Shown here in pieces: positions 6,444 to 63,759 of a stretch of 64,000 nucleotides of DNA. Origin of the DNA: Acidobacteriota bacterium (lineage in GTDB: Bacteria > Acidobacteriota > Vicinamibacteria > Vicinamibacterales > UBA2999); contig JAEUQR010000141.1 of NCBI GenBank assembly GCA_016789705.1, forward strand, positions 7,175 to 71,174, read 5' to 3'. The stretch's first letter is position 1; the number at the start of each line of letters is the position of its first letter. The notes below the pieces were generated by a model. It was not told the DNA's origin, made no database searches, and saw nothing but the letters and a program-made list of their open reading frames with translations. A program made the position numbers and the translations under genes.

Positions 6444-6587
6444 CTCAGCCTCCGCCGGGTCACGGCTGCAACTGCTGTACCACGCAGGACACGGGCAGGC
6501 GGTCAGCCGGAGCGCCGGAATCCATGGAAATCCGCACCGCCACGACAGCGGGCGCGCGACACGGTGTCGCCCGAAGGGGGCACCGGC

Positions 6588-7523: not shown

Positions 7524-8468
7524 TTATCCCGAGCGCGCGGCGTCGGGCGTGTGCCGCTCACGGGCCGGCTCGAGCAGCACGTTCGTGACGAGCACCACGA
7601 GGAACATGGCGAGCGCCGGCGCCAGCGTCCACGGGGCCCGCGTCATCGCCGAGATCGTGGCGGCATCACTGAGCGCCGTGCCCCAGCTCGGCACGCCGTC
7701 GGGGAAACCGAGCCCGACGTACGACAGCGTGGCTTCGGCGAGCACGAACATCGGCACGAGCAGGGCCGTCTGCACCGCGAGATAGCCGTGGCAGGCCGGC
7801 AGCAGGTGCCGCGTCATCACACGCCAGCGCGAGGCGCCGAGCGCGACGGCGGCCAGCACGTGTTCCTGCCGCGCCTCCGCGCGCACGATCGCCCAGACCC
7901 CGCGGGCGATCCGCGGCCAGCCGAGCAGCACGAAGATCGCGGCCAGCACGCCGACGATGACCGGCAGCGGCAGCACGAGTGGCAGCGCGGCCCGCAGGGC
8001 CACGACGACATAGAGCACCGGCAGCACCATCAGCACGTCGCCCGTCTTGAGCACGAGGCGCTCGACGAGACCACCGGCCAGGCCGGCCCAGCTCCCGAGC
8101 AGCGCCCCGAGGAGCAGCGTGCCGGCCGTGGCGACGAGCGCGAGCCCGAGTGAGGCACGCGCGCCGTGCAGCGTGCGCGAGAGGACGTCGCGCCCGAGAC
8201 GGTCGGCGCCGAGCAGCAACACGGGCGTGGCCGCAGGTGTCGTCCACGGCAGACCGGCCCGCTGCGACGGGTCTTCGGCGAACGTCTGCTCGAGGCGATC
8301 GAGGGGTCGCAGCGGCACGGTGTAGAGGCCACGACCATCGAGGTGCAGCGGCATGGGCGGCGCGTGCAGATGGTCGTCGAACCGCGTCACGGGGCCATAG
8401 GGCGCCACGAGCGGCCCGGCCACGGCCACCGCGACGAGCACGGCCACGAGCATGAGGGCGCGCCTCAT
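7524..8468 (-). CDS. ABC transporter permease, DppC/OppC-like
   Basis: Real start at MRRALMLVAVLVAVAV (ATG on the complement of 8466-8468). It overlaps the upstream stop in ATGA. Binding-protein-dependent permease pattern: ...SYVGLGFPDGVPSWGTAL. The longer 400-aa track ORF has an R-rich N-terminal extension that overlaps the upstream gene. Confidence 0.85.
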   Translation of the reverse strand: MRRALMLVAVLVAVAVAGPLVAPYGPVTRFDDHLHAPPMPLHLDGRGLYTVPLRPLDRLEQTFAEDPSQRAGLPWTTPAATPVLLLGADRLGRDVLSRTLHGARASLGLALVATAGTLLLGALLGSWAGLAGGLVERLVLKTGDVLMVLPVLYVVVALRAALPLVLPLPVIVGVLAAIFVLLGWPRIARGVWAIVRAEARQEHVLAAVALGASRWRVMTRHLLPACHGYLAVQTALLVPMFVLAEATLSYVGLGFPDGVPSWGTALSDAATISAMTRAPWTLAPALAMFLVVLVTNVLLEPARERHTPDAARSG

Positions 8469-9427
8469 TCGATGCGCCCCTCCAGCACGCGCGGGTCGAG
8501 CGCGGCATGCGCGATGTCGGCCAGTGTCGTGCCGGCGGCGAGCGACACGGCGCCGAGGGCGCCGCAGCCCGCCACGAGCCAGACATCGCGGGCACTGAGG
8601 GCGTCGAATAGCAGCCGTCCGAGTCCGGGCCACGCCGTCACGATCTCGACCACGAAGCTGCCGCTGAAAAGCGCGCCCACGAGCACGCCGTAGGTGCCGA
8701 GCACCGGCGCCAGCGACACCGGCCACGCATGCACCCGCGCGGCGGCGTCGGCGTCGAGGCCACGGGCGCGGCTCGCGGCCACGAACGAGCGCCCGAGCGT
8801 GTCGGCCATGGCGCGTGCCTGCAGACGTTCAAGCGTGGCGGCGAGCGGCAGCGCGAGCGCCAGCGTGGGCACCGGCAGGTGCCGCAGCAGATCGACGAAC
8901 CACGCGGCCCCCGTGAGGCCGCCTGACGTGATGCCGCCTGCCGGCAGCCAGCCGGTGCGGGCGGCGATGAACACGAGCAGGAGCGCGCTCAAGAGCGGCG
9001 GCACCGACAGCACGGCCAGCGACAGCGCGCGCACGACGCGCGACAAGCTGCCCTGGGTCGAACCGGCCAGCCGCCCGAGCGGCAGCCCGATGCCGGTCGC
9101 CACGACGAGCGCCGCCAGCGCGAGCAGCGCCGTGTTCGCGGCGCGCTCGCCCACGAGGTCGGTCACCGGGCGGCGGTACAGCGAGGACCGGCCCATGTCC
9201 AGGCGCAGCAGTCCACCGAGCCAGTGCGCGTACTGGGTCAGGAAGGGCCGGTCGAGTCCGAGCTCGGCGCGCAGCGCCGCGACCTCCTCCGGCGAACGCT
9301 GCAGGCGATCTTCGAGGGCGGGATCGCCCGGCACCAGGCGCGCCAGCAGCAGCGTGAGCGACGCGACGACCAGGGCGAAGATCGCCCCGCTCACGACGCG
9401 ACGCACGGCAAAACGCGCGAGCGACAT
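8465..9427 (-). CDS. ABC transporter permease, DppB/OppB-like
   Basis: MSLARFAVRRVVSGAIFALVVASLTLLLARLVPGDP...; typical DppB N-terminus and six hydrophobic segments. Confidence 0.85.
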   Translation of the reverse strand: MSLARFAVRRVVSGAIFALVVASLTLLLARLVPGDPALEDRLQRSPEEVAALRAELGLDRPFLTQYAHWLGGLLRLDMGRSSLYRRPVTDLVGERAANTALLALAALVVATGIGLPLGRLAGSTQGSLSRVVRALSLAVLSVPPLLSALLLVFIAARTGWLPAGGITSGGLTGAAWFVDLLRHLPVPTLALALPLAATLERLQARAMADTLGRSFVAASRARGLDADAAARVHAWPVSLAPVLGTYGVLVGALFSGSFVVEIVTAWPGLGRLLFDALSARDVWLVAGCGALGAVSLAAGTTLADIAHAALDPRVLEGRIE

Positions 9428-9430
9428 CGA

Positions 9431-11188
9431 CTAGCGGCTCGTGGGCGCGGCCCCGGCGGCGAGCGCCAGCGTGTCGGCGCTCCACAGCAGTTGCGGGCGG
9501 GTCACACCCGGCGTCTCGTTGCGCACGCGCGGCCCGACGGCCACGAAGAGACGGGGTGCGGCGAAATACATCGCCGGCAGGTGTTCACTGAACACCCGCT
9601 GCACGTCGCGGAAGAGGCGCACACGTTCAGCCGGATCCACGTTGGCCGCCTGGCGGTTCACGAGCGCATCCATCTCGCGCTCCCACTCGGTTGCGGGCGT
9701 CTTCTGCGAGATGTTCCAGATGTGCGCGCTGCCGCTGCTCAGCCAGAAGTCGCGTTGCATTGCCGGGTCCGGGTCGGTGGCGACGTAGTTGAAGAAGATC
9801 GCTTCGAAGGTGCCGGCCAGCATCCGCTCGATGAGCGTGCCGGGTTCGAGCGGCGCCAGATCCATCGCAACGCCAACGCGCTCGAAGCTTTCCTTGAGCA
9901 CCTGCGCCCCACGTTCGATCGCGGTGTTGCCCTTGTAGTGGATGAGCGTGAAGCGCGCTTCGTTGCCGGCGGCGTCTTCGAGGAAGGCATCGGCGTCGCG
10001 ATTGGCCAGGCCGAGTTCGGCGAGCAGCGCCGCCGACTTCTCGCGGTCGAAGGCGTACCGTGGCAGGTCGGGCCAGAACCACGCCTTGTTGCCCGGCGAG
10101 ACCGGACCATGCACCGGCACTGCGGCGCCGAGGAACACGGTGTTCGCATAGGCCTCGCGGTCGACGGCGTGATTGAGCGCCTTGCGGAACGTGTCGGTGA
10201 ACAGCCACGCGCGGCGCGGGTCCTTCGCCCACATCGCCGGCCGCAGGTTGAAGAAGAACACGTCGGGATCGAGCGACACGCCCACTTCGGCCATGCGCAG
10301 CCGGCCGGCGCGTTCCATCTCGCGCGCCGTGCCGTAATCGTCGGGCCGGAGCTGCTGCTGCGTGAGGTCGAGATCGGCGGACTGCAGGCCGAGGAGCTCG
10401 GCGTTCTGGTCGGGCACGATCCGCAGCACCAGGCCATCGAGATACGGCAGGCCGATGCCGCGATCGTCCTTGCGCCAGTAGTGGGGATTGCGGGCGAAGG
10501 TGAGCCGCTGCCCCGGTTCGTACTGACTGAGCACGAACGGGCCCATGCCGACGATCTCCGCGGGAGCGGTCGTGGTGCCCCACGCGTCGGCCATCGTGCC
10601 GCCGGTGAGCGCGGCTTCGAGCTTGTGCTTCGGCAGGATGGTCAGGTTGTCGAGCAGGCGAATACCGGGACCGAAGGGATGCGGAAACGTGACCACGACG
10701 GTGCGCGCATCGGGCGTGGCGACCGCGAGCGGATCGCCATCGACCTGCAGGCTGCTCGCGAGCACGCTCTTCACGCGCGGGTCGAACACCGCCGCGAACG
10801 TGAAGGCGACGTCGGCCGACGAGAACGGCACGCCGTCAGACCACGAGAGGCCGTCGCGCAGGGTGAGCGTGTGGACGAGGCCGTCGGGCGACGACGTCCA
10901 CGACTCCGCGAGCCACGACTCGAGCTCATAGGTGGCCATGTTCACGCGCACGAGCCGTGCCTGCGTCAGCAGCGCGAAGAGCTGGGTGGCGTAGTCGCGC
11001 GAGACCAGACGGTTGAACGACCGCGGCTCGCTGCGCAGTGACGCGGCCAGCACGCCGCCACGCTGAGGCAGCTCGACCGTGGGACGGGCGTCCGGCGTGG
11101 GCGCCAGGCTGCGGCTACCCCACCAGAAGTAGCCGAACAGGCCCACCACGAGGATGGCGATGAGGGGAAATCGCGATTGTCGGTTCAC
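9431..11188 (-). CDS. ABC transporter substrate-binding protein, family 5 (peptide/nickel type)
   Basis: 585 aa with a GTG start and an N-terminal signal anchor (FPLIAILVVGLFGYFWW). SBP_bac_5-like segments: RNPHYWRKDDRG..PYLDGLVLRIVPD. It sits directly upstream of the two permease genes. Confidence 0.85.
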   Translation of the reverse strand: MNRQSRFPLIAILVVGLFGYFWWGSRSLAPTPDARPTVELPQRGGVLAASLRSEPRSFNRLVSRDYATQLFALLTQARLVRVNMATYELESWLAESWTSSPDGLVHTLTLRDGLSWSDGVPFSSADVAFTFAAVFDPRVKSVLASSLQVDGDPLAVATPDARTVVVTFPHPFGPGIRLLDNLTILPKHKLEAALTGGTMADAWGTTTAPAEIVGMGPFVLSQYEPGQRLTFARNPHYWRKDDRGIGLPYLDGLVLRIVPDQNAELLGLQSADLDLTQQQLRPDDYGTAREMERAGRLRMAEVGVSLDPDVFFFNLRPAMWAKDPRRAWLFTDTFRKALNHAVDREAYANTVFLGAAVPVHGPVSPGNKAWFWPDLPRYAFDREKSAALLAELGLANRDADAFLEDAAGNEARFTLIHYKGNTAIERGAQVLKESFERVGVAMDLAPLEPGTLIERMLAGTFEAIFFNYVATDPDPAMQRDFWLSSGSAHIWNISQKTPATEWEREMDALVNRQAANVDPAERVRLFRDVQRVFSEHLPAMYFAAPRLFVAVGPRVRNETPGVTRPQLLWSADTLALAAGAAPTSR

Positions 11189-11191
11189 TTG

Positions 11192-11219
11192 TTGGCCGAT
11201 CGGCCAAGAACTTGGCCAA
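11192..11219. promoter_or_regulatory. Perfect 16-bp palindrome TTGGCCGATCGGCCAA plus adjacent 8-bp palindrome TTGGCCAA; candidate regulator or enhancer site
   Basis: Read directly: 11192-11207 TTGGCCGATCGGCCAA and 11212-11219 TTGGCCAA. The site is 4 nt upstream of the SBP GTG start on the minus strand. It is also about 215-230 bp upstream of the sigma-54-like promoter on the plus strand. Confidence 0.35.
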
Positions 11220-11419
11220 TCGTCTCGCTGTTAGTTTTTCGGCCTGTTTTTGCACGGGCTGCACGGTTTCCCGAGCCGCCGGGAGTTCCGCGCAGAGAGA
11301 GCCAACAGCTTGTCCACCAGCTCGCTCGGGCCGTCGCAGCCCAGCCCCGGCGCATCCTAGACCACCAAGTTCTTTGATTGCAATTACTTACGGAAGACCC
11401 CGTAGCCACTGCCGGCCGC

Positions 11420-11434
11420 TGGCACCAGCCCTGC
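11420..11434 (+). promoter_or_regulatory. Sigma-54 (-24/-12) type promoter candidate: TGGCAC-N5-CTGC
   Basis: TGGCACcagccCTGC compared with the consensus TGGCAC-N5-TTGC; the GG and GC dinucleotides have the correct spacing. The -12 GC is 23 nt upstream of the HTH ATG (11458), with GGAG at 11448-11451. An AT-rich tract (11377-11397) lies just upstream. A sigma-54 activator gene lies downstream on the same strand. Confidence 0.5.
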
Positions 11435-11457
11435 CTCTCTTATCGGCGGAGTTCGCT

Positions 11458-11664
11458 ATGGAAACCACTCAGAACCTGACCAGTTCCCCGGCTCTTCCCC
11501 AGCTGGGACGCAGCGTGACCATCGAGCGAGCCGCGGAGATCCTCGGCGTGTCGCGCCGGACGGTTTACTACCGCATCAGCGAAGGCGTTCTGCAGACCGT
11601 CCGCACACGCGGCGGTTCTCAGCGCGTCGTGGTCGAGTCGCTGCTCGGTCAGTCGAAGCACTGA
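11458..11664 (+). CDS. Small helix-turn-helix DNA-binding protein (excisionase/MerR-like HTH_17 type)
   Basis: 68 aa starting at METTQNLTS. HTH segment: VTIERAAEILGVSRRTVYYRISEGVLQTVRTRGGSQRVV. The 150-aa track ORF has an implausible N-terminal extension across the intergenic region. Confidence 0.7.
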   Translation: METTQNLTSSPALPQLGRSVTIERAAEILGVSRRTVYYRISEGVLQTVRTRGGSQRVVVESLLGQSKH

Positions 11665-11723
11665 CGCCCCTTCACCGACACGTTCGCAGGCACAGAGTCC
11701 CCCCGGACCAGGACACAACTTCA

Positions 11724-13469
11724 ATGACCAGCCGCATTCTCGCCGCCCTCGTCGCCGTCGCGATGGCCTCCCCGGCACTGGCCGGCCCCGGTCGCCGCGC
11801 CAGGCTGTCAGCGGACCTCTCCGACGAGATTCGCAAGGGCAACCGCAGCACCGTCGAAGTGATCGTCGATGGCGACGACGCCACGATCAGCCGCGTGCTC
11901 TCGCGCCACCCGCTGCTGCTCAAGAAGCGGCTGCGCCGCGGCGCGGTGCTGGAAGTGCCTGCAGGCCAGCTCGACGCGCTCGCCGCCGACGCCGACGTGA
12001 ACGCGGTGGCCGCCAACGCCGTGGTCACCTCGCACATGGCACTCACCACGGCCACGACAGGCGCCGACGCGGCGCTGAACGGCCTGGTTTCCACCCTCGG
12101 CGCGGTGAACGGCAGCGGCGTGGGCGTGGCCATCATCGACTCGGGTATCGCGGCCCACCGGTCGCTGGCGGGCAAGGTCGTGGCGAGCGTGGACTTCACG
12201 CGCGACGGCCGCGGGCGCGGGCGTGACGGCTACGGACACGGCACCCACATCGCCGGGATCGTGGCCGGCGACGCCATCAGCGTGAAGAACGGCGACGGCG
12301 CCGCGGGCATGGCCCCCGGCGCGCACCTCATCAACCTGCGCGTCCTCGGCAACGACGGCTCCGGTCAGGTGGCCGACGTCATCGAAGCGGTGGACTGGGC
12401 CATCGAGAACCGCGGCCAGTACAACATCCGCGTCATCAACATGTCGCTTGGCACGGCGGTGACGCAGTCCTACAAGGACGACCCGCTCGGTCAGGCCGTG
12501 GAGCGCGCCGTCAAGGCGGGTATCGTGGTGGTGGCTTCAGCCGGCAATCGCGGCGAAACGGCCGACGGCAAGACGGTGCTCGGCAGCGTGACCTCCCCGG
12601 GCAACTCGCCCTACGTCATCACGGTGGGCGCGGTGCGCGCCAACGGCACGGCCGACCGGAGTGACGACACGCTGGCGCCCTGGAGTTCGCGCGGCCCCAC
12701 GCAGTTCGACTCGCTCGTGAAGCCCGACATCGCGGCGCCCGGCAGCCTCATCGCCTCGGCCGGCGTCGAGGGCTCGACCCTGGCGCTGACGCGTCCCGAC
12801 CGGATGAGCAACGCGGGCAAAGCAGCCTACATGACGCTCAGCGGCACCAGCCAGGCGGCGGCCGTGGTAAGCGGCGCGGTGGCCCTGCTGATTGACTCGA
12901 ACCCCCGTTTGACGCCTCTCGGAGTGCGACTCGCGCTGCAGGCCTCGGCGGACTTCATGCCCGAGGCGGGTCTGACCGGCGCGGGAGCTGGCGAACTGAA
13001 CTTGCTGAACGCGCTTCAGGATGGCCAGGTGCTGCCCACGCGCACGACCGCGGACCTGTTCCCGGCCAGCTGGGGTGTGACGGCGAAGGCGGAGGTGGTG
13101 CGGAACAGCTCCGTGAAGGGGCAGACGCTGGTATGGGGCGAGACCCTCGTATGGGGCGACGCCCTCGTATGGGGCGACACCCTCGTATGGGGCGACACCC
13201 TCGTATGGGGCGAGACCCTCGTATGGGGCGACACCCTCGTATGGGGCGACACCCTCGTGTGGGGCGACACCCTCGTGTGGGGCGATACCCTCGTGTGGGG
13301 CGACACCCTCGTGTGGGGCGACACCCTCGTATGGGGTGACTCGATCATTTGGGGCAACTCGATCATTTGGGGCAACTCGATCATCTGGGGCAACTCGATC
13401 ATCTGGGGCAACTCGATCATCTGGGGTAACTCGATCATCTGGGGCAACTCGATCATCTGGGGCAACTAG
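11724..13469 (+). CDS. Secreted subtilisin-like serine protease (peptidase S8) with I9-like propeptide and a C-terminal tandem hexapeptide repeat tail
   Basis: Signal peptide MTSRILAALVAVAMASPALA. Catalytic triad contexts: VAIIDSGI (Asp), GHGTHIAG (His), LSGTSQAAAVVSG (Ser). The last 115 aa are 12x (D/E)TLVWG followed by 7x (D/N)SIIWG. Confidence 0.9.
   Translation: MTSRILAALVAVAMASPALAGPGRRARLSADLSDEIRKGNRSTVEVIVDGDDATISRVLSRHPLLLKKRLRRGAVLEVPAGQLDALAADADVNAVAANAVVTSHMALTTATTGADAALNGLVSTLGAVNGSGVGVAIIDSGIAAHRSLAGKVVASVDFTRDGRGRGRDGYGHGTHIAGIVAGDAISVKNGDGAAGMAPGAHLINLRVLGNDGSGQVADVIEAVDWAIENRGQYNIRVINMSLGTAVTQSYKDDPLGQAVERAVKAGIVVVASAGNRGETADGKTVLGSVTSPGNSPYVITVGAVRANGTADRSDDTLAPWSSRGPTQFDSLVKPDIAAPGSLIASAGVEGSTLALTRPDRMSNAGKAAYMTLSGTSQAAAVVSGAVALLIDSNPRLTPLGVRLALQASADFMPEAGLTGAGAGELNLLNALQDGQVLPTRTTADLFPASWGVTAKAEVVRNSSVKGQTLVWGETLVWGDALVWGDTLVWGDTLVWGETLVWGDTLVWGDTLVWGDTLVWGDTLVWGDTLVWGDTLVWGDSIIWGNSIIWGNSIIWGNSIIWGNSIIWGNSIIWGNSIIWGN
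13122..13337 (+). repeat. Tandem repeat type A: 12 x 18 nt (consensus GACACCCTCGTRTGGGGC, encoding DTLVWG)
   Basis: Units read one by one. They differ at only a few positions: CAG/GAG/GAC/GAT in the first codon, ACG/GCC/ACC in the second, CTG/CTC in the third, GTA versus GTG in the fourth, and a final GGT. Confidence 0.95.
13338..13463 (+). repeat. Tandem repeat type B: 7 x 18 nt (consensus AACTCGATCATYTGGGGC, encoding NSIIWG)
   Basis: Follows type A with no spacer. The units are followed only by AAC TAG. Variants are ATT in units 1-2, ATC in units 3-7 and one GGT. Confidence 0.95.
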
Positions 13470-13545
13470 CCCGGCGCCGAAGCACGTAGTTGTGTGCAGT
13501 TCGCTAACGTCCCTATAGCTCGCACTCTGATTTGCCGAGGTACAT

Positions 13546-13575
13546 ATGAAGCCGCTCATCATCTGGGGCGAGTAG
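13546..13575 (+). other. Orphan degenerate copy of the type B repeat unit (mini-ORF MKPLIIWGE) in the S8 / HD-GYP intergenic region
   Basis: ATGAAGCCGCTCATCATCTGGGGCGAGTAG. The 12-mer ATCATCTGGGGC is identical to the core of the type B unit. It is in a different frame from the S8 ORF and 77 nt past its stop. Confidence 0.5.
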
Positions 13576-13597
13576 AAGCAACAAACCGGTTGGCAGC

Positions 13598-15931
13598 GTG
13601 GTGGACACCCCAAAGAACCGAGTCGGTCGTGTCTACCTCTGGGCGGTTCCCACCGCCGGACTGCTAACGCTCGCCTGGGCGGCAAGAGACTTGGTCGCCC
13701 ACCCTCCTTCAAACTACTGGATTGCGCTTGCAGTCTTAACCGGCCTGACCGGTTCGTTTACAGTAAAGATCCCCGGCATGGTGGCTCGGCTGTCTGTTTC
13801 CGAGCCATTTGTCTTTGCCTCCGCCATGCTGTTCGGCCCAGCCGCCGGCACCGTGACGGTAGCGATTGATGCCTGCGTAATGTCGCTGCGGCTGATGCCG
13901 TCGCTTCGGACGCCCCATCGAATTCTCTTCAACGTCGGCACGCTTGTCGTGTCGGTCGCAGTGTCGGCCGTTGCGTTCTTCAAGCTAGCAGGCATCGACC
14001 CTCGCGCCCCGCACTACCCCTCCGTCGACACCTTTATCTGGCCGCTGTACGTTTTCACCACGCTGTGCTTCGTGCTGAACAGCGGGCTCGTCGCACTGGC
14101 ACTCAGTATCGAGCGACGTGCATCGGCCTTCGCAATATGGCGACAGCAGTTCATGTGGCTTTCGGTGAACTACTTCGCAGGCGCGTCAGTGGCTGCATTG
14201 CTAGTGGTTTACGCCAGAACGGTCGATGCTGCGATTCTCGGTGTCGTCATTCCGTTGATCGCAATCCTGTACCTGACTTTCCGTACAACACTGGGACGTC
14301 TCGATGACGCCAACAAGCACCTCAGCGAGGTGAACTCGCTATACCTTTCGACCATCGAGACGCTCGCGATGGCGATCGATGCCAAAGACCAAGTCACGCA
14401 CGGTCATATCCGTCGCGTACAGCGGTTCGCCGTCGGCTTGGCCAAAGCGCTAGGCGTCAGCGACGACCGTCAGCTGCGTGCGATTGAAGCTGCCGCCCTG
14501 CTTCACGACATGGGCAAGCTTGCGATTCCTGAATTCATTCTCAACAAGCCAGGAAAGCTGACGACTCGCGAGTTCTCCGTCATGAAGACGCACGCGGCAG
14601 TCGGCGCTGATCTGCTCTCATCGATCCAGTTTCCCTACCCGGTTGTGCCGATCGTCCGCCATCACCACGAGAATTGGGATGGCAGCGGATACCCCGACGG
14701 AATCAGGGGATCCGACATTCCGCTGGGTGCAAGAATCCTTTCCGTCGTCGACTGCTACGACGCTCTGACGTCTGACCGCCCGTACCGGCCCGCGATGTCT
14801 CCCGAAGACGCCCTCGACATTCTCTCGCAGCGTCGAGGCAAGATGTACGACCCGCTCGTAGTCGATGCCTTCATCCGCGATCACGTGGCACTCTGTGCGG
14901 GCGTAGAGCTGCGGGACATACCAGCGTTGATTCTGGCGAACCAAGCCGAGACGCATGCGGGCACACAGCCTTCTGCGTCAGACATTAGTACTGTGCAACT
15001 GGAGCCGATCGAGTCTCTTCGCCTGATCGCAAGCCTCTCGCCATTTCCTGAGGGCGCTCCACTGCCAGCCATCTGTCGCCAGATCGTTGACAGCCTCCGC
15101 ACGATTGCCTCATTCGACACGGCCACGGTGTTCTTGCTGGACGATGACTCAAGCGATGCAGAGGCCGTATTCGCCGCAGGCTCCGTCGCGCAACAGGTCG
15201 CGGGCATACGCATTCCGATCGCGGAACGCTTGACTGGATGGGTAGCCGCTCACAGGACGGCAGTCTGGAACTCAGATGCTGCGCTTGACTTAGCCTCAGT
15301 GGCGTCGGGAGCTTCGCTCACGCTTGGGTCGAGTCTCCCCTTGAGCGTCGGCGACGCATTAATCGGAGTGCTTTCACTGTATGGCCGGTCAGACCAAGAG
15401 GTCACTGTCGGCCAGCGCCGCGCTCTTGAATCACTCCTCCCAGCAATCTCTGCCAGTCTTGGCGCAGCCGCTCAGAGACCAGGAATCGCAATCGACTGTG
15501 CCGACGAGCCTACACGACAGGCTGCAACGTCTGCCCTCGATGCCGTGTTGTCTCACGAGCGAGGATCATCAAGCGGCCGGGTCTCGGTGATTGCCGTCAA
15601 TATCGCGCACATAGCATCAGACACTTCGAGGCCTGAGCGCCTTGAGTTGGCGGCGATTGAGCTCTCGGCCCTCCTGTCGCCTTATCGGTCTCGCCACCGC
15701 TGTGTAATTCGCCTCTCGAACAATCAGTTCCTGTTATGCGCCCTTGACGACGCTAACGCGGATGTCCTCGAGGCCGAAGTGGAACGGGCCGGAAAGCATC
15801 GAGCGTTGAGCGCAGTTCGGCTGCTTACTACCCGACTAAATAGCGCTCTTGACCTGCAGGATCGCATCCGCAAGATCGCCGACGGCTCCTCGGCTACGTC
15901 TATTCATGGCCCGATGAGCCGAATCCACTAA
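13598..15931 (+). CDS. Multi-pass membrane HD-GYP domain protein (putative c-di-GMP phosphodiesterase) with GAF and a degenerate GGDEF-like C-terminus
   Basis: GTG start. About 230 aa of TM helices come first. HD-GYP core: HGHIRRVQ...LLHDMGKLAIP...HHHENWDGSGYPDG...ARILSVVDCYDALTSDRPYR. GAF-like segment: ICRQIVDSL...TATVFLLDD...LIGVLSLYG. The tail VSVIAVNIAHIAS...CVIRLSNNQFLLCAL resembles a GGDEF domain with NNQF in place of GGDEF (15710-15730). Confidence 0.85.
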   Translation: MVDTPKNRVGRVYLWAVPTAGLLTLAWAARDLVAHPPSNYWIALAVLTGLTGSFTVKIPGMVARLSVSEPFVFASAMLFGPAAGTVTVAIDACVMSLRLMPSLRTPHRILFNVGTLVVSVAVSAVAFFKLAGIDPRAPHYPSVDTFIWPLYVFTTLCFVLNSGLVALALSIERRASAFAIWRQQFMWLSVNYFAGASVAALLVVYARTVDAAILGVVIPLIAILYLTFRTTLGRLDDANKHLSEVNSLYLSTIETLAMAIDAKDQVTHGHIRRVQRFAVGLAKALGVSDDRQLRAIEAAALLHDMGKLAIPEFILNKPGKLTTREFSVMKTHAAVGADLLSSIQFPYPVVPIVRHHHENWDGSGYPDGIRGSDIPLGARILSVVDCYDALTSDRPYRPAMSPEDALDILSQRRGKMYDPLVVDAFIRDHVALCAGVELRDIPALILANQAETHAGTQPSASDISTVQLEPIESLRLIASLSPFPEGAPLPAICRQIVDSLRTIASFDTATVFLLDDDSSDAEAVFAAGSVAQQVAGIRIPIAERLTGWVAAHRTAVWNSDAALDLASVASGASLTLGSSLPLSVGDALIGVLSLYGRSDQEVTVGQRRALESLLPAISASLGAAAQRPGIAIDCADEPTRQAATSALDAVLSHERGSSSGRVSVIAVNIAHIASDTSRPERLELAAIELSALLSPYRSRHRCVIRLSNNQFLLCALDDANADVLEAEVERAGKHRALSAVRLLTTRLNSALDLQDRIRKIADGSSATSIHGPMSRIH

Positions 15932-15932
15932 C

Positions 15933-18728
15933 GTGCGCGCTCCCGTCGAACACCTTGCAGCCATCGGGAACGTCACCGAGGCTCTGAAGCACCTCAGACA
16001 GGTCACTAATCCTAGTCTGGAGCTCAAAGTGCTGAGGGCAGAGCTCGAAGCCCTGGCGTCACACCGAGAGTTGGCACTCGATCTGGCCACGAGTGTCGCC
16101 TCCAGCGCCGGGCCAGCAGGCGTAATCGTCCGCGCCTTGGCCGTAGCCGGTCGCCTGCACTACTTCTCCGGAAACACACTTGAAGGACGACATCAGTTCG
16201 ACCGAGCAGTCGACATTGCAGCCCACAGCGGCGATGCCGAGCTGGAAGCCCTGGCGTTAGGCGGCCATATTCAGTCGTTGCTTCGATTCATCGGACTGGA
16301 GGCTGCCGTCGGGGGCATCAGCCGGTACAGAAAAGCGGCAATACGCTCAGGCAAGTCGTCTAGCCTCGCAGCTCTTCACAGAACGCTTGCCGAGGCGGAA
16401 CTCAAAGGCGGCAGACGCCACCGGGCATTGCGAGAGCTCGAGCTTTCTGGACTGCACGTCGAAGTGACGCAGGACCAAGTCGCACTCGCGCAGCTGCACT
16501 TTGCGAGAAGCGCAGCCGAGGGCCTGTTAGGCGACCACCTCGCCTCTTTAGAACACGCGAAGCAAGCGGTTACGATCGCAAGCGACTGTGGCGCCACGGC
16601 GATCCTGCAATCAGCGCTCGTCAATGTCGCCCACTGCCAGACTGTCTTGGGCCATCACCGGGAGGCTGAGCAGACCTTCGCAAGACTTGAAGCAGCCAAC
16701 GTCCCCTCTGTCGGCCGCGAGCTGATCGTCCGGAGCAACCAGCTTCTCCTTGCAACAGCCCAACGCGACGAGCATCTCGCCACCGCAATCGACTCTCGAT
16801 ATGGGCCTATCGCGGCCGACCAAGCGCTGACGACAGCGCAATGGTATAAGTTGCAGGCGGTTGAATACCACTTGGCTTTCGGTCGCGCAGCCGAGGCAAT
16901 CACGCTGGGAAGACGCTGCATTGCGGAGCCCACAGAGTCTGACCGTGACTTCTTGGCGAGGACCGAAGCCGCGACTGCCGAGGCGCTTGCGGCAGGAAAC
17001 GAACCCAAGGAAGCGGCCACGCTACTTTGGAGGGTTGCATCCGGGCATTCTGGCGCGTTGCCGGAGTTTCTTGCAGCTGTCCAGAGAGTGGGCGGGAGGC
17101 TCTCGCGCGACTCTGCGAGCGCTGCATTCGAGCTCTTCGCGCGCTCGGGGCGCCTCTACGCCAGTACCGGCCACATTATTGGCTCTGGCGAGGCACTCCA
17201 CGCCGCCGCCACACTGCGCGCCTCTCGCGCGCCGGCAGGCTCGCCCGACGCCGTCGTCCCCCACATCACCACGTTCTACCAGAAGCCACCGGCGTCCTTC
17301 GGACGTGTGGACGAGCGGTCGGACGCCACGCCGACGACGATGCCGGAGGCCGTCGCCAGCGCTGTGCGCGCATCGGCCGCGATGGTGGACCTTACGTCCC
17401 GGCCGGCGCTGGCCGGATACGAGCTGCTCTCCCTGGCCGCTGCGAGCGGCGCGGCGGCATCGGCCGTGATGTTCGCACGCGGCGCCAAGGGCATCGAGAC
17501 GCTCGGCTGGGTGGGCAGCGAGACGCCGGATCTCGCGCTGCACCAGCCGTCGGACGACTGCGTCACGTTCGTGCTGGGTAATGAGCGCGACCGAGAGGTC
17601 TCGGTGGTCGTGCGTCCACGCAACCAGCAGTCGGCACGCACCACGCTCATCGCCCTGCAGCGTCTCGTGACCAACGGCCTGACCCTGCATCGCGCGGCCG
17701 TGGCCGAGAGCGAGAAGTCGGCCATCTGGCCCGAGCCCCTGCCGGAGCAGCAGCTGGGATTCGTCTGCGTGGCCGAATCGATGCTCGAGCTGATGCGGGT
17801 CACCCGTCGGGTGGCCGCCAGCCACTTCACCGTGCTCGTCACCGGCGAGACGGGCACCGGTAAGGAGCTGCTGGCCCGCGCGATCCACAACTGCTCACCA
17901 CGGGCGAAGAAGCCTTTCACGCCGTTCAACTGCACGGCCGTGCCGCGCGAGATGCTCGACAGCCAGCTCTTCGGCTACAAGCGCGGCGCTTTCACGGGCG
18001 CCCTCGACAACTTCCCGGGTGTGATCCGCGGTGCCGCCGGCGGCACGCTGTTCCTCGACGAAATCGGTGAGATCGGCATGGACGTGCAGCCCAAGCTGCT
18101 GCGCTTCCTCGAGTCGAGTGATGTACATCCACTGGGCGAGTCTGCGCCGGTCAGTGTCGACGTTCGCATCGTCGCCGCGACGAACGCGAACCTCGATCGG
18201 ATGGTCGCGGACGGCAGATTCCGCGACGATCTGTACTACCGGCTGAACGTCGTGAAGCTCACGATTCCGCCGCTGCGCGAGCGGCGCGAGGAAATCCCCC
18301 TGCTGCTCGACCACTTCCTGGAACGCAGCATGAAGGAGTGCAGCAAGGCGGGCATCCGCATCGGCGAGACCGCGGCGGAGTTCTTGCTGCTCTACGACTG
18401 GCCAGGCAACGTGCGGGAACTCGCCAACGAGGTGCGGCGGGCGGTGGCGCTCGCCGAATCGGGTGCGGTCCTGATGCCCGAGCACCTGTCGGCGCGTCTG
18501 GCCGCCTCGCGGCGCACGGTGCCGGTGGGCCAGCGTCCGCCGGCCCCCACCGAGCTGCTCGTGCGTCGCGATCAGCCGCTCAACGCCGCGGTGGAACATG
18601 TCGAACGCGCGCTCATCCAGGATGCCCTGCGCATCCACGGCAACGTCGAAGACGCCGCCCGCGCGCTCGGGCTTTCGCGCAAGGGCCTCTACCTGAAGCG
18701 TCAGCGGCTCCGTATCGACGAGGAATAG
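15933..18728 (+). CDS. Sigma-54-dependent transcriptional activator (bacterial enhancer-binding protein) with a long (about 600 aa) helical-repeat/GAF-like N-terminal region
   Basis: The GTG start is 1 nt after the upstream TAA. AAA+ sigma-54 interaction domain: VLVTGETGTGKELLARAIH, GAFTGA (17985-18002), GTLFLDEIGE, RIVAATN. C-terminal Fis-type HTH: AARALGLSRKGLYLKRQRL. Confidence 0.9.
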   Translation: MRAPVEHLAAIGNVTEALKHLRQVTNPSLELKVLRAELEALASHRELALDLATSVASSAGPAGVIVRALAVAGRLHYFSGNTLEGRHQFDRAVDIAAHSGDAELEALALGGHIQSLLRFIGLEAAVGGISRYRKAAIRSGKSSSLAALHRTLAEAELKGGRRHRALRELELSGLHVEVTQDQVALAQLHFARSAAEGLLGDHLASLEHAKQAVTIASDCGATAILQSALVNVAHCQTVLGHHREAEQTFARLEAANVPSVGRELIVRSNQLLLATAQRDEHLATAIDSRYGPIAADQALTTAQWYKLQAVEYHLAFGRAAEAITLGRRCIAEPTESDRDFLARTEAATAEALAAGNEPKEAATLLWRVASGHSGALPEFLAAVQRVGGRLSRDSASAAFELFARSGRLYASTGHIIGSGEALHAAATLRASRAPAGSPDAVVPHITTFYQKPPASFGRVDERSDATPTTMPEAVASAVRASAAMVDLTSRPALAGYELLSLAAASGAAASAVMFARGAKGIETLGWVGSETPDLALHQPSDDCVTFVLGNERDREVSVVVRPRNQQSARTTLIALQRLVTNGLTLHRAAVAESEKSAIWPEPLPEQQLGFVCVAESMLELMRVTRRVAASHFTVLVTGETGTGKELLARAIHNCSPRAKKPFTPFNCTAVPREMLDSQLFGYKRGAFTGALDNFPGVIRGAAGGTLFLDEIGEIGMDVQPKLLRFLESSDVHPLGESAPVSVDVRIVAATNANLDRMVADGRFRDDLYYRLNVVKLTIPPLRERREEIPLLLDHFLERSMKECSKAGIRIGETAAEFLLLYDWPGNVRELANEVRRAVALAESGAVLMPEHLSARLAASRRTVPVGQRPPAPTELLVRRDQPLNAAVEHVERALIQDALRIHGNVEDAARALGLSRKGLYLKRQRLRIDEE

Positions 18729-18735
18729 CGCCCGC

Positions 18736-21222
18736 TCAGTTCCCGCCGCCACCCAGGGGCGGGCCGGGGCTCAGCGGATACCGCGATCGCGGCCGCGTCC
18801 CCCAGCCCGGCGCGATGAACTTCGGTGCGTTCGCGGCGGGATTCTGCAGATACCGCGTGATGTCCGTTTCCGCCTGCCGCAGGTGCGCCTCGGCCATCGG
18901 GTCGGCGTCCTTCCGCGCGGCCAGGCTCTGCCCGAGCGCGCGAATCTGCTGCAGCACGTAGGCCCGCACCTCAGGCGTCGTGTCGGCGTGTCCGCCCAGG
19001 ATCATCAGTGCATCGAGCGCGGCCCGTTCGGTCACACGGCGAATGGAGACGTGCCGTGGCGACTCGCTGCCGTGCGGTCCCCAGGTGGCCTTGAGCACCT
19101 CGGCCACGACGTCCGGCAAGGTGAGGGCGTTGGTCTGCCGATCCGCGAACGCCACGAGGCGGGCGGCGCGGTCTGGCTGCAACAGGTCGCCCAGCACCAT
19201 GGCCGCAAGAATGCGCGCGGCGCGAAGGTGGTCGAAGGCGTAGTCGCTGGACATGTCTTCGAGGTTGCTGCCCGGGTGCGGCGTCAGCTGCGCCAGCAGC
19301 GGCTCGGGCAACTCGAGCGCGGCGGGCGCGATCGCCGACAGCAACAGGCCGAGCACCTCGCGCTGCGTGGCCGCGGGCACGATCTCGGTCGGGGCGCCGG
19401 CGTCGCCTTTGACGTTGAAGGAGTGGAACATCCCGCCCACGTACCGCAGGCCGGATTCGATCGCCCAGCGGTGGTGCAGATAGGTCATCCACAGCCGCGC
19501 ATCGCGCAGCGCGCCCACCGGCTCACCCGGCCGCAGGATGTTCTGGCCGTAGTTGTTGAGCATGATGGCGCGAGCGGCCATCGTCTCCTTCAAGTACTCC
19601 GACGGCGTCGCGCGGTCGTCGTACCACGACCACCGCGGGTCGGTCTCGGGCACGAAAAGGAGGCTCCTGGCGCGCAGCTCGCGGATGACGCCGTCAAGGC
19701 CGGCCTTCTCCTGGTCGGCGGGAAACACGGAGTAGGCGTACTTCGCCATCATCTCGTCGTAGGGGCCGATGGCACGCTGGAACGCGTCGCTCAGGTCGAG
19801 GCGACCGTTCGTGACCTTGACGCGCGGCGTCGGGTACTCCATGACCGAGGCGAAGTTGTTGAGGCTCGCCGAGAAATTGTGCTGGAAGCCCATGACGTGG
19901 CCAAGTTCATGCGCCGTGAGCAGCGTCTGGCGCAGCAGCACCAGGTCGCGCTCGGCCGCGGGCATGCCGTCGGTGGGCTGGCCTTCGGCCAGCGCCTCGA
20001 CCAGCGCCGGATCGCCGGCAAAGAGCGCCGCGTCGTCGTCCGCGCCGCCGGTGGTGGGGGTGTAGGCTTCGAAGTAGTTGCCGATGGTGCGGATGCGATG
20101 CGAGTCCATCCGCGTCTTCGAGCCGAGGATCTCGCCGGTGCGCGGGTCACGGAACGTGCCGCCGCTCGAGAAGCCGCGCTCGTCGCGATTGATCCAGAGG
20201 ATCCACGCGTAGCGGATATCCATCGGATCCATGTCCGGCGTCGGGTCTTTCACCTGCACGGCGTTGCGGAAGCCGGCGGCCTCGTAGGCCCTGTTCCACC
20301 ATAACGCGCCGTTGCGCATCGCCGTGCGTGTGGGCTCTGGAATGCCGGGGTCGAGGTAGAACACGATCGGCGTCTTCGGCTCGCTCATCGCCGCCGCCGG
20401 GTCTTTCTTCTCGAGGCGCCAGCGCGTGATCCACTGCACCTCGGTGTCCTGGTCGAACGGCTTCGTGAAGTCGCGGAACGTGATGGTGCTCACGCCGATC
20501 CTGGGGTCGGCCATGCGGGGTGTGTAGCCCTCCGGCGCCTTCAGGAACGAGTGATGGATGCGCAGCGTGAAGAACCGGCCGTCGGGGGTGACGTTGTTCA
20601 CGAGCAACCCGGGATTGTCGGCCACGAAGGTCACCACGGTTTCGACCTCGGCGTTCAGCGGGAAGCTTCTGATGCGCGCCGGATAGAAGGCGCTCCGCGT
20701 CGCGTCGAAGCGGAAGGTGCCCTGATTGACGCGCCGGAAGCGGCCTTCGACATCGGCAGCGTCGCGCAGGAAGAGCGGCGAGGCGTCGACGAGCACGCGT
20801 CCGTTCTCGTCGGCCTCGACGGGCAGTGCCGCGAGCACGGAACTGGCGAACGAGTCGCGCACGTTCTCGATCTGCGCGGCCGAGCCCCCCACCGCGCGGT
20901 ACCGCTGGTTCTGCGCGATGACCAGCACACGCGGTCCCGACCGCTGGAAGTGGATAACTTCGGTGCCGAGGATGCCACGGTCGAACGGCAGTTCCACGGA
21001 GCCCGCGCCCGACGCCGCCGACACGTAGTACAGCACGTCGCTGTCGAACACCGGCACTTCGGCCAGCACACGCCCGCGCGCCGCATCCCAGTAGAGCGGC
21101 ACGAAGCCGTCGAGTCTGGTGAGGCCTTTCGTGCGTTCCGCCAGCGTCGTGGCGGGTTGGGCGGCCGCCGACGCGGCGAGCGCCGCCGCCAGCACCCACG
21201 CCATCGCGATCGTGCGCGTCAT
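18736..21222 (-). CDS. Secreted zinc-dependent metalloprotease (met-zincin-like, DUF4953/DUF5117-type)
   Basis: Start chosen at MTRTIAMAWVLAAALAASAAAQ (signal peptide; ATG on the complement of 21220-21222). Zinc site: LLTAHELGHVMGFQHNF. Confidence 0.8.
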   Translation of the reverse strand: MTRTIAMAWVLAAALAASAAAQPATTLAERTKGLTRLDGFVPLYWDAARGRVLAEVPVFDSDVLYYVSAASGAGSVELPFDRGILGTEVIHFQRSGPRVLVIAQNQRYRAVGGSAAQIENVRDSFASSVLAALPVEADENGRVLVDASPLFLRDAADVEGRFRRVNQGTFRFDATRSAFYPARIRSFPLNAEVETVVTFVADNPGLLVNNVTPDGRFFTLRIHHSFLKAPEGYTPRMADPRIGVSTITFRDFTKPFDQDTEVQWITRWRLEKKDPAAAMSEPKTPIVFYLDPGIPEPTRTAMRNGALWWNRAYEAAGFRNAVQVKDPTPDMDPMDIRYAWILWINRDERGFSSGGTFRDPRTGEILGSKTRMDSHRIRTIGNYFEAYTPTTGGADDDAALFAGDPALVEALAEGQPTDGMPAAERDLVLLRQTLLTAHELGHVMGFQHNFSASLNNFASVMEYPTPRVKVTNGRLDLSDAFQRAIGPYDEMMAKYAYSVFPADQEKAGLDGVIRELRARSLLFVPETDPRWSWYDDRATPSEYLKETMAARAIMLNNYGQNILRPGEPVGALRDARLWMTYLHHRWAIESGLRYVGGMFHSFNVKGDAGAPTEIVPAATQREVLGLLLSAIAPAALELPEPLLAQLTPHPGSNLEDMSSDYAFDHLRAARILAAMVLGDLLQPDRAARLVAFADRQTNALTLPDVVAEVLKATWGPHGSESPRHVSIRRVTERAALDALMILGGHADTTPEVRAYVLQQIRALGQSLAARKDADPMAEAHLRQAETDITRYLQNPAANAPKFIAPGWGTRPRSRYPLSPGPPLGGGGN

Positions 21223-21301
21223 CGTCTGCTCCTTCACCGAGGGGGACGTCGATTCCCCGCGTGGATTGTCGGCAGGGCGTTCGGTCAAGTCAAGGCATGC
21301 G

Positions 21302-62400: not shown

Positions 62401-62712
62401 GTGGCCCCTCGATAGGCCGACTGATCACGGTACATCCGCGTTGCGTGAACGTCAAACGAGTGTTCAAACAGCGCGGTGCCACCTGCGCCGTGACGGGTTT
62501 CCGCACAGCAGAACTGGCAGTTCGTCCTCGATTCCGTTGTTCCGCCGCGGCATCCACACCAGTCTCACCCTGCGGGGCGGCGAACTCTCCGAGAATTCTG
62601 CAACCCCGGCAATGGCACGGCGCGGGAACGCGTCTTGCTCGTCGGGCACTGGCGCCGACTCGCCCCGGTCGGTCACGCCAGCGCCGATTACATTTCTGAG
62701 CGGAGTGAACAC

Positions 62713-63759
62713 ATGAACATGGTGAGACTGGTGAAGAACGGCATGCTCGCTCTGGCGATGCTGCTGCTGGCCGGACGGGCGCACGCACTCGGGCTCCAGG
62801 ACCGCGTGCTCGGCAGCAACCCGCTGGCCGGGGCCTTCCAGCAACTGCAGGTCGAGGGCAAAGCCACCATCAGCGCGGTCAGCGGCGCGTGCCCCACGGT
62901 CGTGCTGACGATCGCCGGCATCCCGGTGACGGTGAATGCGACGACGACGTTCCCCGCCGGCCAGTCCTGCGGTCAGCTCGCCGCCAACCTGCGCGTCGAA
63001 GTGCGCGGCATGCTGACGATCGATGCCGGCGCGCTGTCGGTCGTGGCGACCACGATCGAGATCGAGGACGGCAGCGAAGGCGAGGGCGAAGGCCGCGTGA
63101 CCGACGTGCAGGGAACCTGCCCGAACATCACCCTGACCGTCGACGGCCTCACGGTGAAGGCCGACGCGCTCACGAAGTACGTGCCCGCGAACCGCGGCGC
63201 CGGCTGCGACCAGATCAGAATCGGCACGAAGATCAAGGTGAAGGCCGTGCCCGCGACGGGCGGCGGCTATCGCGCCCGCCTCATCGAAATCAAGGGGCAC
63301 CGGCACTTCGGTGAAGGTGAGGGGCGCATCACGCAGGTCACCGGGACCTGCCCCGATGCGACGATCTACTTCGGTGCCACCGCCGTGCAGGTGAACGCGG
63401 CCACGAATTTCGTGGGCGGCAGCTGCGCCGACCTGGCCGTGGGCGTCCGCGTGCAGGCGCGCGGCTTCAAGGACGACGACGCCACCGCGAACGTCGCCAG
63501 CTGGATCCGCTTCAAGTCGCGGCGCGTCGAGGGACGCTCGACCATCACGGCGGTGAGCGGCACCTGCCCGGCGCTGTCGTTCACGGTGGCCGGCGTGGTC
63601 AAGGTCGTGACCGACGCCAGCACGGAGTTCGAGCACGGCACGTGCGCCAGCCTCGCGGTGGGCACGAGGGTGCGCGTGAAGGGCGACATGAAGACCGACG
63701 ACGGCGAGGTCATCGCCGAAGAAGTCGAGATCGAAAGCCGCCCCGGCGGCTCCCGCTAG
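62713..63759 (+). CDS. Secreted protein made of four DUF5666-like repeats with conserved cysteine pairs
   Basis: Start at MNMVRLVKNGMLALAMLLLAGRAHA. Four units of about 75-80 aa each contain G(A/T)CP...(F/L)T(I/V).G..V and G.(S/G/T)C..L..G..V.V.G: GACPTVVLTIAGIPV/GQSCGQLA; GTCPNITLTVDGLTV/GAGCDQIR; GTCPDATIYFGATAV/GGSCADLA; GTCPALSFTVAGVVK/HGTCASLA. Confidence 0.7.
   Translation: MNMVRLVKNGMLALAMLLLAGRAHALGLQDRVLGSNPLAGAFQQLQVEGKATISAVSGACPTVVLTIAGIPVTVNATTTFPAGQSCGQLAANLRVEVRGMLTIDAGALSVVATTIEIEDGSEGEGEGRVTDVQGTCPNITLTVDGLTVKADALTKYVPANRGAGCDQIRIGTKIKVKAVPATGGGYRARLIEIKGHRHFGEGEGRITQVTGTCPDATIYFGATAVQVNAATNFVGGSCADLAVGVRVQARGFKDDDATANVASWIRFKSRRVEGRSTITAVSGTCPALSFTVAGVVKVVTDASTEFEHGTCASLAVGTRVRVKGDMKTDDGEVIAEEVEIESRPGGSR

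Follow-up and report, generated by a model that had tools for sequence, protein, structure and literature searches.

A recurrent Acidobacteriota locus combining a conserved, probable sigma-54 promoter, a tryptophan-motif subtilase, a MASE9-HD-GYP protein and a sigma-54 activator

Results

Gene content of the locus and its spread across Acidobacteriota

We analyzed a 64,000-nt stretch of DNA from an Acidobacteriota bacterium (assembly GCA_016789705.1, contig JAEUQR010000141.1; hereafter the window, 70% G+C) that carries on its plus strand, at 11458-18728, the genes for a small helix-turn-helix (HTH) protein, a secreted S8 subtilase, an HD-GYP membrane signaling protein and a sigma-54 activator, preceded by a sigma-54-type (-24/-12) promoter element. 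An earlier note, made from the sequence alone, had proposed that these four genes form a self-contained module under the control of sigma-54 and cyclic di-GMP (c-di-GMP). Comparison with Pfam confirmed the families given for all four genes (HTH_17, Peptidase_S8, HD_5 plus GAF, and Sigma54_activat), and the sequence features behind the proposal were found in place; the interpretation built on them was supported in part. The features of the region are the following.

7524..11188, minus strand: divergent Opp/Dpp-type ATP-binding cassette importer genes (Pfam)
11202..11217, no strand: conserved palindrome site 1, GGCCAAGAACTTGGCC (comparison of lineages)
11251..11294, no strand: TGCACGG direct repeats with an inverted partner, candidate binding element (alignments)
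11300..11315, no strand: conserved palindrome site 2, AGCCAACAGCTTGTCC, degenerate in the window (comparison of lineages)
11352..11390, no strand: conserved blocks GCATCCTAGACCACCAA (11352-11368) and GCAATTACTTA (11380-11390) (alignment)
11420..11435, plus strand: putative promoter of sigma-54 type, TGGCACCAGCCCTGCC (consensus match and conservation)
11458..11664, plus strand: HTH gene, 68 aa, excisionase/MerR-type (Pfam HTH_17 4e-7, HTH_8 4e-6; NCBIfam 'excise' 2e-7)
11724..13469, plus strand: secreted S8 subtilase, 581 aa (Pfam Peptidase_S8)
13546..13575, plus strand: mini-gene MKPLIIWGE*, 9 codons (open reading frame and conservation)
13598..15931, plus strand: HD-GYP membrane signaling protein, 777 aa (Pfam HD_5 and GAF)
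15933..18728, plus strand: sigma-54 activator, 931 aa (Pfam Sigma54_activat, AAA_lid and HTH_8)

For comparison, orthologous loci were retrieved via the activator and 80 species-level loci via the S8 protein; all of these sequences come from metagenome assemblies, several with N-gaps in the repeats that encode the protease tail. All orthologous loci of sufficient length keep the HTH, S8, HD-GYP and activator genes side by side, so that the neighborhood is indeed kept in other genomes, and the activator gene adjoins the HD-GYP gene in all of them. The GTG start of the activator had been placed 1 nt past the HD-GYP stop codon; this is correct, and the tight junction is maintained in relatives. 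Among the species loci, tblastn placed a MASE9-HD-GYP gene after the S8 gene in many Vicinamibacterales and Bryobacterales; loci of Terriglobia type have a divergent HD-GYP gene upstream of S8. An iterated hidden Markov model detected a MASE9-like domain, fused or, often, as a stand-alone protein of ~240 aa, in the first open reading frame (ORF) after S8 in 28 of 62 loci.

The linkage extends to the divergent transporter, which consists of an SBP_bac_5 gene (9431-11188) and two permease genes (8465-9427 and 7524-8726), all on the minus strand and followed by genes for a DHDPS-family protein and an M48 peptidase. By tblastn, an SBP_bac_5 gene is linked to S8 in about 30 of the 80 species loci, distant classes included. 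In L091 the transporter genes form one operon with an oligo_HPY ATPase gene, and the order there is activator (PAS-AAA+-HTH-PilZ), divergent from MASE9-HD-GYP-GAF-GGDEF, two permeases, SBP_bac_5, oligo_HPY ATPase, S8 and a MASE9-only protein. The description as self-contained was therefore wrong on two counts, since the divergent transporter is co-conserved and the nine-codon gene had been missed. By these comparisons the module is neither unique nor self-contained, being spread across Acidobacteriota and often linked to an Opp-like transporter. The earlier note did not recognize the gene combination as a described system, and in the open-access literature we found no paper on it, nor anything relevant on TPR activators with peptide signals, tryptophan-repeat subtilases or the micro-gene. 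The combination is not a one-off, however, and because related forms recur across the phylum, the locus looks like an undescribed signaling circuit. Two further arrangements were seen after S8: in six species loci the first ORF encodes a GNAT acetyltransferase (Acetyltransf_3), and in L053, L064, L068, L077 and L086 an ORF of ~220 aa separates S8 from the MASE9-like gene.

The HTH gene is confined to 12 Vicinamibacteria-type lineages among the species loci. Its Shine-Dalgarno sequence GGAG (11448-11451) is conserved, and a longer version of the gene from a TTG at 11212 (150-aa ORF) was ruled out by upstream indels and a scrambled segment, the gene calls in relatives all being 68-69 aa. The HTH is fused to the S8 protein in P0164, and L027 carries an extra copy of the small gene adjoining the activator gene (17160-17516, minus strand). 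That the small protein might be a copy of the activator's DNA-binding domain found weak support in a 19-residue match (E = 5e-4). A consensus scan found neither plus-strand terminator-like sites nor a sigma-70 promoter in 11000-19000, and Rfam returned no RNA family for 10900-19000 at E <= 1.

The sigma-54-type element upstream of the HTH and S8 genes

The element TGGCACCAGCCCTGC is present at 11420-11434, where the earlier note had placed it, with its 3' end 23 nt ahead of the ATG at 11458. In the slightly longer form TGGCACCAGCCCTGCC, GG of the -24 region falls on 11421-11422 and GC of the -12 region on 11433-11434, and the GG-N10-GC spacing is correct; the transcription start is predicted at ~11445-11447, with a leader of ~12 nt. 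The match alone is not significant because the window holds 45 comparable sites: with three mismatches to the 16-mer consensus TGGCACGNNNNTTGCW, the 11420 site is one among them. The pattern TGGCAC-N5-YTGC has one match in the window versus 0.41 expected, and at least one match occurs in 35 of 100 shuffles. Neither this match nor the perfect palindrome upstream of it exceeds chance when taken alone, and the support comes from genome comparison.

We aligned the transporter-HTH intergenic regions of 13 lineages, in which S8 identity goes down to about 44%. TGGC..N..TGC is kept with exact spacing in all of them, and the ~30 nt immediately upstream are scrambled. Where a lineage has no HTH gene, the corresponding site stands immediately ahead of S8, e.g., TGGTACGGTACCTGCG in L018 and L020. 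Of 78 species loci, taken as independent in the statistic, 34 carry a site with at most three mismatches on the coding strand within 450 nt upstream of the protease, versus 9.4 expected (P = 3e-12), and 12 do so on the opposite strand; in L080, one-mismatch sites lie ahead of both the HD-GYP operon and the S8 gene. These comparisons mark the 11420 element as a phylogenetic footprint and sigma-54-type sites as a trait shared by the protease family, and they make a functional sigma-54 promoter at 11420-11435 very likely. No RpoN box was found within the 64-kb window; the presence of rpoN would be implied by an activator with an intact GAFTGA motif.

The 11420 element had also been described as the only intergenic near-consensus match. 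It is the sole intergenic site of the TGGCAC type, but it is not the only one of sigma-54 type, because a conserved and better-matched site, TGGTACAGCAGTTGCA, lies at 6467-6482 on the minus strand, 24 nt ahead of the M48 peptidase start. There, CGTGGTAC..CAGTTGCA is invariant in L001, L002 and L006/L007, and the flanks are poorly conserved. A further sigma-54-like sequence, GGGAACGCGTCTTGCT, with two mismatches, was seen at 62624-62639 (plus strand), at the end of the intergenic region before an ORF at 62635-63759.

Conserved palindromes and other intergenic elements

The palindromes that the earlier note had read as an enhancer, TTGGCCGATCGGCCAA at 11192-11207 and TTGGCCAA at 11212-11219, are both there. 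As a significant feature per se, the perfect 16-bp palindrome was ruled out, given that the window contains six such sequences versus 5.35 expected; it is, moreover, particular to the window, relatives reading TTGGCCGACCGGTCAA, and it overlaps the left arm of another palindrome that is conserved. This conserved element, GGCCAA-N4-TTGGCC, occurs in two copies (site 1, 11202-11217; site 2, 11300-11315, degenerate), at about -236 and about -138 relative to the predicted start.

Both copies lie at nearly fixed offsets from the transporter start in 15 lineages, including two without the HTH gene (L019 and L022). Measured from the SBP start, the offset of site 1 is +14 in L019 and in 11 of the 13 HTH-carrying lineages, +23 and +8 in the remaining two, and +29 in L022; in the window the site is 14 nt from the transporter GTG. 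Site 2, with up to three mismatches, is at +110 to +112 in 12 lineages, at +104 in L019 and at +119 in L022. Because the arms are conserved in sequence, with a variable central 4 nt and no compensatory changes, the palindromes fit a protein-binding site and not an RNA hairpin. Hairpins in the transporter leader were ruled out on the same grounds and because the variants would produce C-A mismatches on the transporter mRNA strand. The idea of a private operator of the small HTH protein is weakened by L019 and L022, which carry the palindromes in the absence of its gene. We infer that GGCCAA-N4-TTGGCC may be the binding site of the activator.

Between the two copies lie conserved TGCACGG direct repeats (11251-11257 and 11260-11266) with an inverted partner CCGCGCA (11288-11294; CCGTGCA in relatives), which make up a second candidate binding element. 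The AT-rich tract that had been taken for a bend does hold conserved sequence, as the blocks at 11352-11390 overlap it; read on the minus strand, these give TTGCAA-N18-TAGGAT, and the block within the tract may just as well supply the -35 region of a divergent transporter promoter of sigma-70 type. The -10 hexamer varies (TAGGAT, TACGAT, TACCAT, and TATGAT in L019), and with 8 of 12 matches the pair falls below the call of the consensus scan. A sigma-70 promoter of the divergent transporter operon is a possible reading of these blocks, and a bend or IHF-like site would be the alternative.

The HD-GYP protein and the activator

The HD-GYP protein is arranged as MASE9-like (~10-236), HD-GYP (255-420), GAF (489-618) and degenerate GGDEF-fold (~630-770) domains. 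In the HD-GYP domain (PF13487, 3e-42), HD and HHENWDGSGYP are intact, and LLHDMGK and HHHENWDGSGYP are nearly invariant in 32 homologs, which suggests that it is an apparently active phosphodiesterase. MASE9 matches the window protein weakly (E = 0.0014-0.008, under the Pfam cut-off) and its relatives clearly (1.7e-8 in L080). A degenerate GGDEF domain had been proposed for the C-terminus; Pfam detects none in the window protein, where the hairpin RLSNNQF replaces RxGGDEF, and the assignment proved right at the level of the fold. An AlphaFold model of residues 430-777 (predicted local distance difference test score, pLDDT, 84), built like our other models on a protein fragment only, shows a GAF plus GGDEF fold, and Foldseek returned two-domain matches to the GAF-GGDEF proteins DcsbIS and PelD (4zmu, 4etz/4dmz; E about 1e-7 for PelD). 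As judged from the model, the C-terminus is a PelD-like GAF plus degenerate GGDEF unit. The RxxD I-site is not conserved: the positions before the hairpin vary in the 32-sequence alignment and read SRHR in the window. The gene has a GTG start with a weak ribosome-binding site. In the NCBI annotation the protein (P0177, 717 aa) begins 60 aa downstream (13778 versus 13598); the long form is more likely, given a length of ~777 aa in most homologs and the conservation of the first 60 residues.

The activator, the sole enhancer-binding protein in the 64-kb window, has an AAA+ domain at residues 614-776 (Sigma54_activat PF00158, 5e-63) with GETGTGKE, LFLDEIGE and GAFTGA (17985-18002), and a Fis-type HTH at residues 887-925 (PF02954, 7e-9). 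No REC receiver domain was found in it, so that it does not qualify as an NtrC-type response regulator, and all NCBIfam equivalogs scored under their cut-offs. A protein from an Acidobacteria metagenome-assembled genome at NCBI is 100% identical to it, and a look-up by exact sequence returned no contig on record. Its first ~600 residues had been considered unassignable; in the AlphaFold model of residues 1-610 (pLDDT 82) they form a TPR-like solenoid (1-432), a disordered linker and a small alpha/beta domain (~490-598), and Foldseek matched this region to TPR proteins, including MalT domain III.

A link to c-di-GMP had also been proposed, and here the distant versions of the module are informative. 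In Terriglobia-type loci, activator genes of PAS-AAA+-HTH_8-PilZ type, i.e., with a C-terminal PilZ domain (L040:852-2681, L057:607-2418, L090:1289-2599 and L091:857-2764, all on the minus strand), adjoin MASE9-HD-GYP-GAF-GGDEF genes, and a canonical GGDEF domain is present in the HD-GYP protein of L038, L066, L074, L080 and L091. At the level of domain content, PilZ and true GGDEF in these versions are independent evidence for c-di-GMP input to the sigma-54 activator of the module. The lineage of the window has neither PilZ nor an active GGDEF, and Pfam recognizes no c-di-GMP-binding element in the window activator.

The tryptophan-motif tail and the nine-codon gene

In the S8 protein, a signal peptide and a pro-region precede the catalytic domain (residues 130-409; Peptidase_S8 PF00082, 8e-51), which is followed by a C-terminal array of 19 hexapeptides (TLVWGD x12 and SIIWGN x7). 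Its triad D139/H172/S376 is invariant in 12 relatives, and the closest solved structure is Tk-SP (3afg), which matches the catalytic domain only. The tail is encoded by two 18-bp tandem arrays, at 13131-13340 (TLVWGD) and 13339-13467 (SIIWGN). Tails of the form [ST][ILV][ILV]WG occur in many relatives with periods of 6-13 residues, within a large S8 family (5681 matches at E <= 1e-20). As the motifs of relatives are set apart by anything from 0 to 7 residues, the tail looks like an array of short motifs and not a regular fold; a transferase-type hexapeptide beta-helix was unsupported (Pfam Hexapep E = 0.8, variable spacers). Close relatives carry about 11 to 19 units. N runs or frameshifts lie inside the 18-bp repeats of L002, L006 (S8 tail region), L015 and L023, and together with the copy-number differences they account for the missing or truncated S8 gene calls in several records.

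Between the S8 stop codon and the HD-GYP start lies a nine-codon gene (13546-13575) with a Shine-Dalgarno sequence GAGG (13537-13540), which ends 22 nt ahead of the HD-GYP start and whose product, MKPLIIWGE, is one copy of the motif that makes up the protease tail. It was found in every orthologous locus, and its start, stop and GAGG or GGAG Shine-Dalgarno sequence are maintained despite diverging flanks. In the closest relatives all changes are synonymous (CCG/CCA, CTC/CTA/CTG, GAG/GAA, TAG/TAA). Among nine sequences of the same length, third positions make up six of the eight variable sites, both replacements being in L023. This pattern is what is expected of a translated small ORF, and the mini-gene probably is one. 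Distant variants read MKLIIWGE, MAKLIIWGD, MRPLIIWDE, ..IIVWS* and MRIIVWTD*, the last adjoining an S8 tail of SIVWTD units, so that the motif of the mini-gene partly tracks that of the tail. In a metagenome collection, 13 of 13 exact pattern matches fell between an S8 tail and a MASE9-HD-GYP gene. Tandem duplications were seen in L012 (MKLIIWGE twice, 11674-11700 and 11751-11789) and in L014 (about 11860-12030, ..MIIVWS* and MTQQIIVWT*). The gene calls on record overlook the mini-gene at every locus examined.

Neighboring genes

Convergent with the activator gene is a DUF5117/DUF4953 met-zincin gene (18736-21333, minus strand), which is present in L002, L003, L008 and L023 and missing from L001, L006 and L009; it is thus a variable insertion at the right edge of the module. 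Beyond it, a divergent pair of genes (21302-24061, minus strand, and 24125-27874, plus strand) encodes large membrane proteins with TLC (ATP/ADP-transporter-like) domains and HEAT repeats, the second one additionally with MFS_1 and two cNMP-binding domains; this pair adjoins the module in several relatives too. On the transporter side, a conserved hairpin follows the DHDPS stop codon.

Discussion

On balance, we favor the following mechanism. The sigma-54 promoter would transcribe the HTH and S8 genes, and since no terminator was found, read-through over the whole array is possible, i.e., into the nine-codon, HD-GYP and activator genes, which would make the activator autoregulated. The cis-encoded TPR/alpha-beta/AAA+/HTH activator would switch the promoter on, most likely from the GGCCAA-N4-TTGGCC palindromes; that it acts on the 11420 promoter is probable. 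The translationally coupled MASE9-HD-GYP-GAF-degenerate-GGDEF protein would set the activity of the activator, by local hydrolysis of c-di-GMP or by direct contact, and such a coupling through c-di-GMP or HD-GYP in the lineage of the window appears somewhat more plausible than its absence. MASE9 would sense a signal in the membrane, for which the best candidate is the [ILV][ILV]WG motif, present 19 times in the tail and once in the mini-gene; its sensing would report export or processing of the protease back to the promoter. We regard this last part, a signal role of tail or mini-peptide, as doubtful. The divergent Opp-like importer would belong to the same unit and couple protein breakdown to peptide uptake.

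Several observations weigh against this mechanism. The promoter match is weak by itself (three mismatches to the 16-mer, 0.41 matches by chance), and the predicted leader of ~12 nt is short. The S8/HD-GYP gap has no sigma-54 site and contains a semi-conserved -10-like block, CCTATnG, so the HD-GYP and activator genes may have a promoter of their own, without autoregulation. No GGCCAA-N4-TTGGCC lies within 500 nt of the M48 sigma-54 site, so there must be another activator unless the sites of this one are something other than the palindromes. The palindromes adjoin the transporter start codon and could be an operator for the transporter, and lineages that carry them show no clear difference in the recognition helix of the activator from lineages that do not. 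In distant lineages the activator is divergent or missing from the fetched flanks. Finally, the window activator has no PilZ domain, and the GGDEF-like domain of its partner lacks an active site and a conserved RxxD I-site.

A possible, though rather unlikely, alternative is that the genes form a nutrient-scavenging regulon, in which the TPR and alpha/beta domains of the activator sense imported peptides, amino acids or nitrogen status, the tail anchors the protease to a surface or substrate, and the mini-gene acts in cis, as an upstream ORF by which translation of the HD-GYP gene is set. The Opp/Dpp-type transporter, the M48 peptidase and the met-zincin nearby all suit such a regulon, as do the transporter-S8 linkage in distant classes and the end of the mini-gene 22 nt ahead of a GTG whose ribosome-binding site is weak, and sigma-54 often governs nitrogen and exterior functions (PMC3162934). 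It leaves unexplained the presence of the tail motif in the mini-gene and the partial co-variation of the two, the duplication of the mini-gene in L012 and L014, and why MASE9, even as a stand-alone protein, so consistently follows S8; the variable-length spacers, too, suggest an array of short motifs and not a folded anchor domain. In a bolder reading, the protease would carry its own signal. Units of [ILV][ILV]WG, arrayed in the tail and made in a single copy by the nine-codon gene, would be released or exposed after export and detected in the membrane by MASE9, whose HD-GYP/c-di-GMP output would alter the sigma-54 activation of the protease genes; the Opp-like transporter may in addition bring the units back into the cell, where the TPR domain of the activator would read them. 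As a complete scheme we consider this unlikely.

It is quite improbable that the genes are linked by position only, so that the sigma-54 promoter is real and activated by an enhancer-binding protein from elsewhere in the genome, and the HD-GYP and activator genes are a separate unit with other targets. The S8/HD-GYP gap with its possible -10 and the M48 promoter without palindromes would agree with this, and as the upstream flank is wholly syntenic in close relatives, synteny is weak evidence there. Against it, the S8, MASE9/HD-GYP and activator genes stay linked across classes despite changed order and orientation, and the domains of the activator change with those of the HD-GYP protein, PilZ going with true GGDEF and TPR with degenerate GGDEF. 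Least probable of all, and very remote in our judgment, is that the -24/-12 element arose by chance or does not serve sigma-54, and that a housekeeping sigma factor transcribes the HTH and S8 genes. The 0.41 expected matches, the 45 comparable sites of the window and the very short leader are set against GG and GC that are invariant, at exact spacing, in 13 lineages with scrambled flanks, against a strand-specific enrichment in 78 species, and against a consensus scan that found no sigma-70-like promoter in the region.

Acidobacteriota rank with the most abundant bacteria of soils, and their gene regulation is poorly understood. The locus provides a definite wiring scheme, found repeatedly in the phylum, in which a sigma-54 activator and a MASE9-HD-GYP c-di-GMP protein are joined to a secreted subtilase and a peptide importer. 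The tail and the micro-gene with the same tryptophan motif provide a testable candidate for the ligand of MASE9, and should the peptide-array reading be true, this would be a feedback or quorum-like circuit in diderm soil Acidobacteria and the first MASE9 ligand. The PilZ-fused activators of sister lineages point, at the domain level, to direct c-di-GMP input to sigma-54 transcription beyond the FleQ/VpsR model, and the conserved nine-codon gene represents an annotation gap.

Comparison with known systems

Every part of the locus comes from a known family, and the locus itself is not a member of the FleQ/VpsR, PelD, RRNPP or LapD/LapG systems. With FleQ of Pseudomonas and VpsR of Vibrio it would share an AAA+ activator of sigma-54 type under c-di-GMP control, as proposed here, and an output in cell-exterior functions. 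The N-terminus of the window activator, in contrast, is a TPR solenoid with an alpha/beta domain and not a FleQ or REC domain, and in distant versions of the module the activator carries a PilZ fusion instead. After Walker A the window activator reads 'RA', where FleQ presumably has 'RN', which we take as a lead only.

We know of no ligand or gene context described for MASE9. Proteins with the order MASE9-HD-GYP-GAF-GGDEF have been reported, and ligand binding by MASE9 within the membrane has been proposed (Galperin and Chou, bioRxiv 10.1101/2021.11.05.467447); the window protein has the same domain order, but its GGDEF is degenerate, and its MASE9 is tied to a tryptophan-repeat subtilase. The two-domain fold of PelD matches the C-terminal half of the HD-GYP protein. 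PelD is the GAF plus degenerate GGDEF receptor for c-di-GMP of the Pel polysaccharide system; its c-di-GMP-binding RxxD I-site is not conserved in the window protein, which adds an apparently active HD-GYP domain.

The RRNPP systems of Firmicutes (Rgg/SHP, PlcR/PapR, Rap/Phr) resemble the locus in parts only: a tiny peptide gene by a TPR-type regulator, an Opp-type importer and an extracellular protease step. Here the regulator is a sigma-54 AAA+ activator with a Fis-HTH and not an XRE-HTH/TPR protein, the nine-residue product lacks an export leader, the protease itself carries the motif too, as an array, and the organism is a diderm. The locus recalls LapD/LapG inside-out signaling in that degenerate c-di-GMP domains sit in an inner-membrane protein with a functional tie to a periplasmic protease and a repeat protein; it differs in having no HAMP or EAL domain, a subtilase in place of the LapG-type cysteine protease, and repeats borne by the protease itself. 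RpfG of Xanthomonas likewise places an HD-GYP phosphodiesterase upstream of the expression of a secreted protease; whereas RpfG is a REC-domain response regulator that acts via Clp, the window locus would take its input through MASE9 in the membrane and give its output through a sigma-54 activator.

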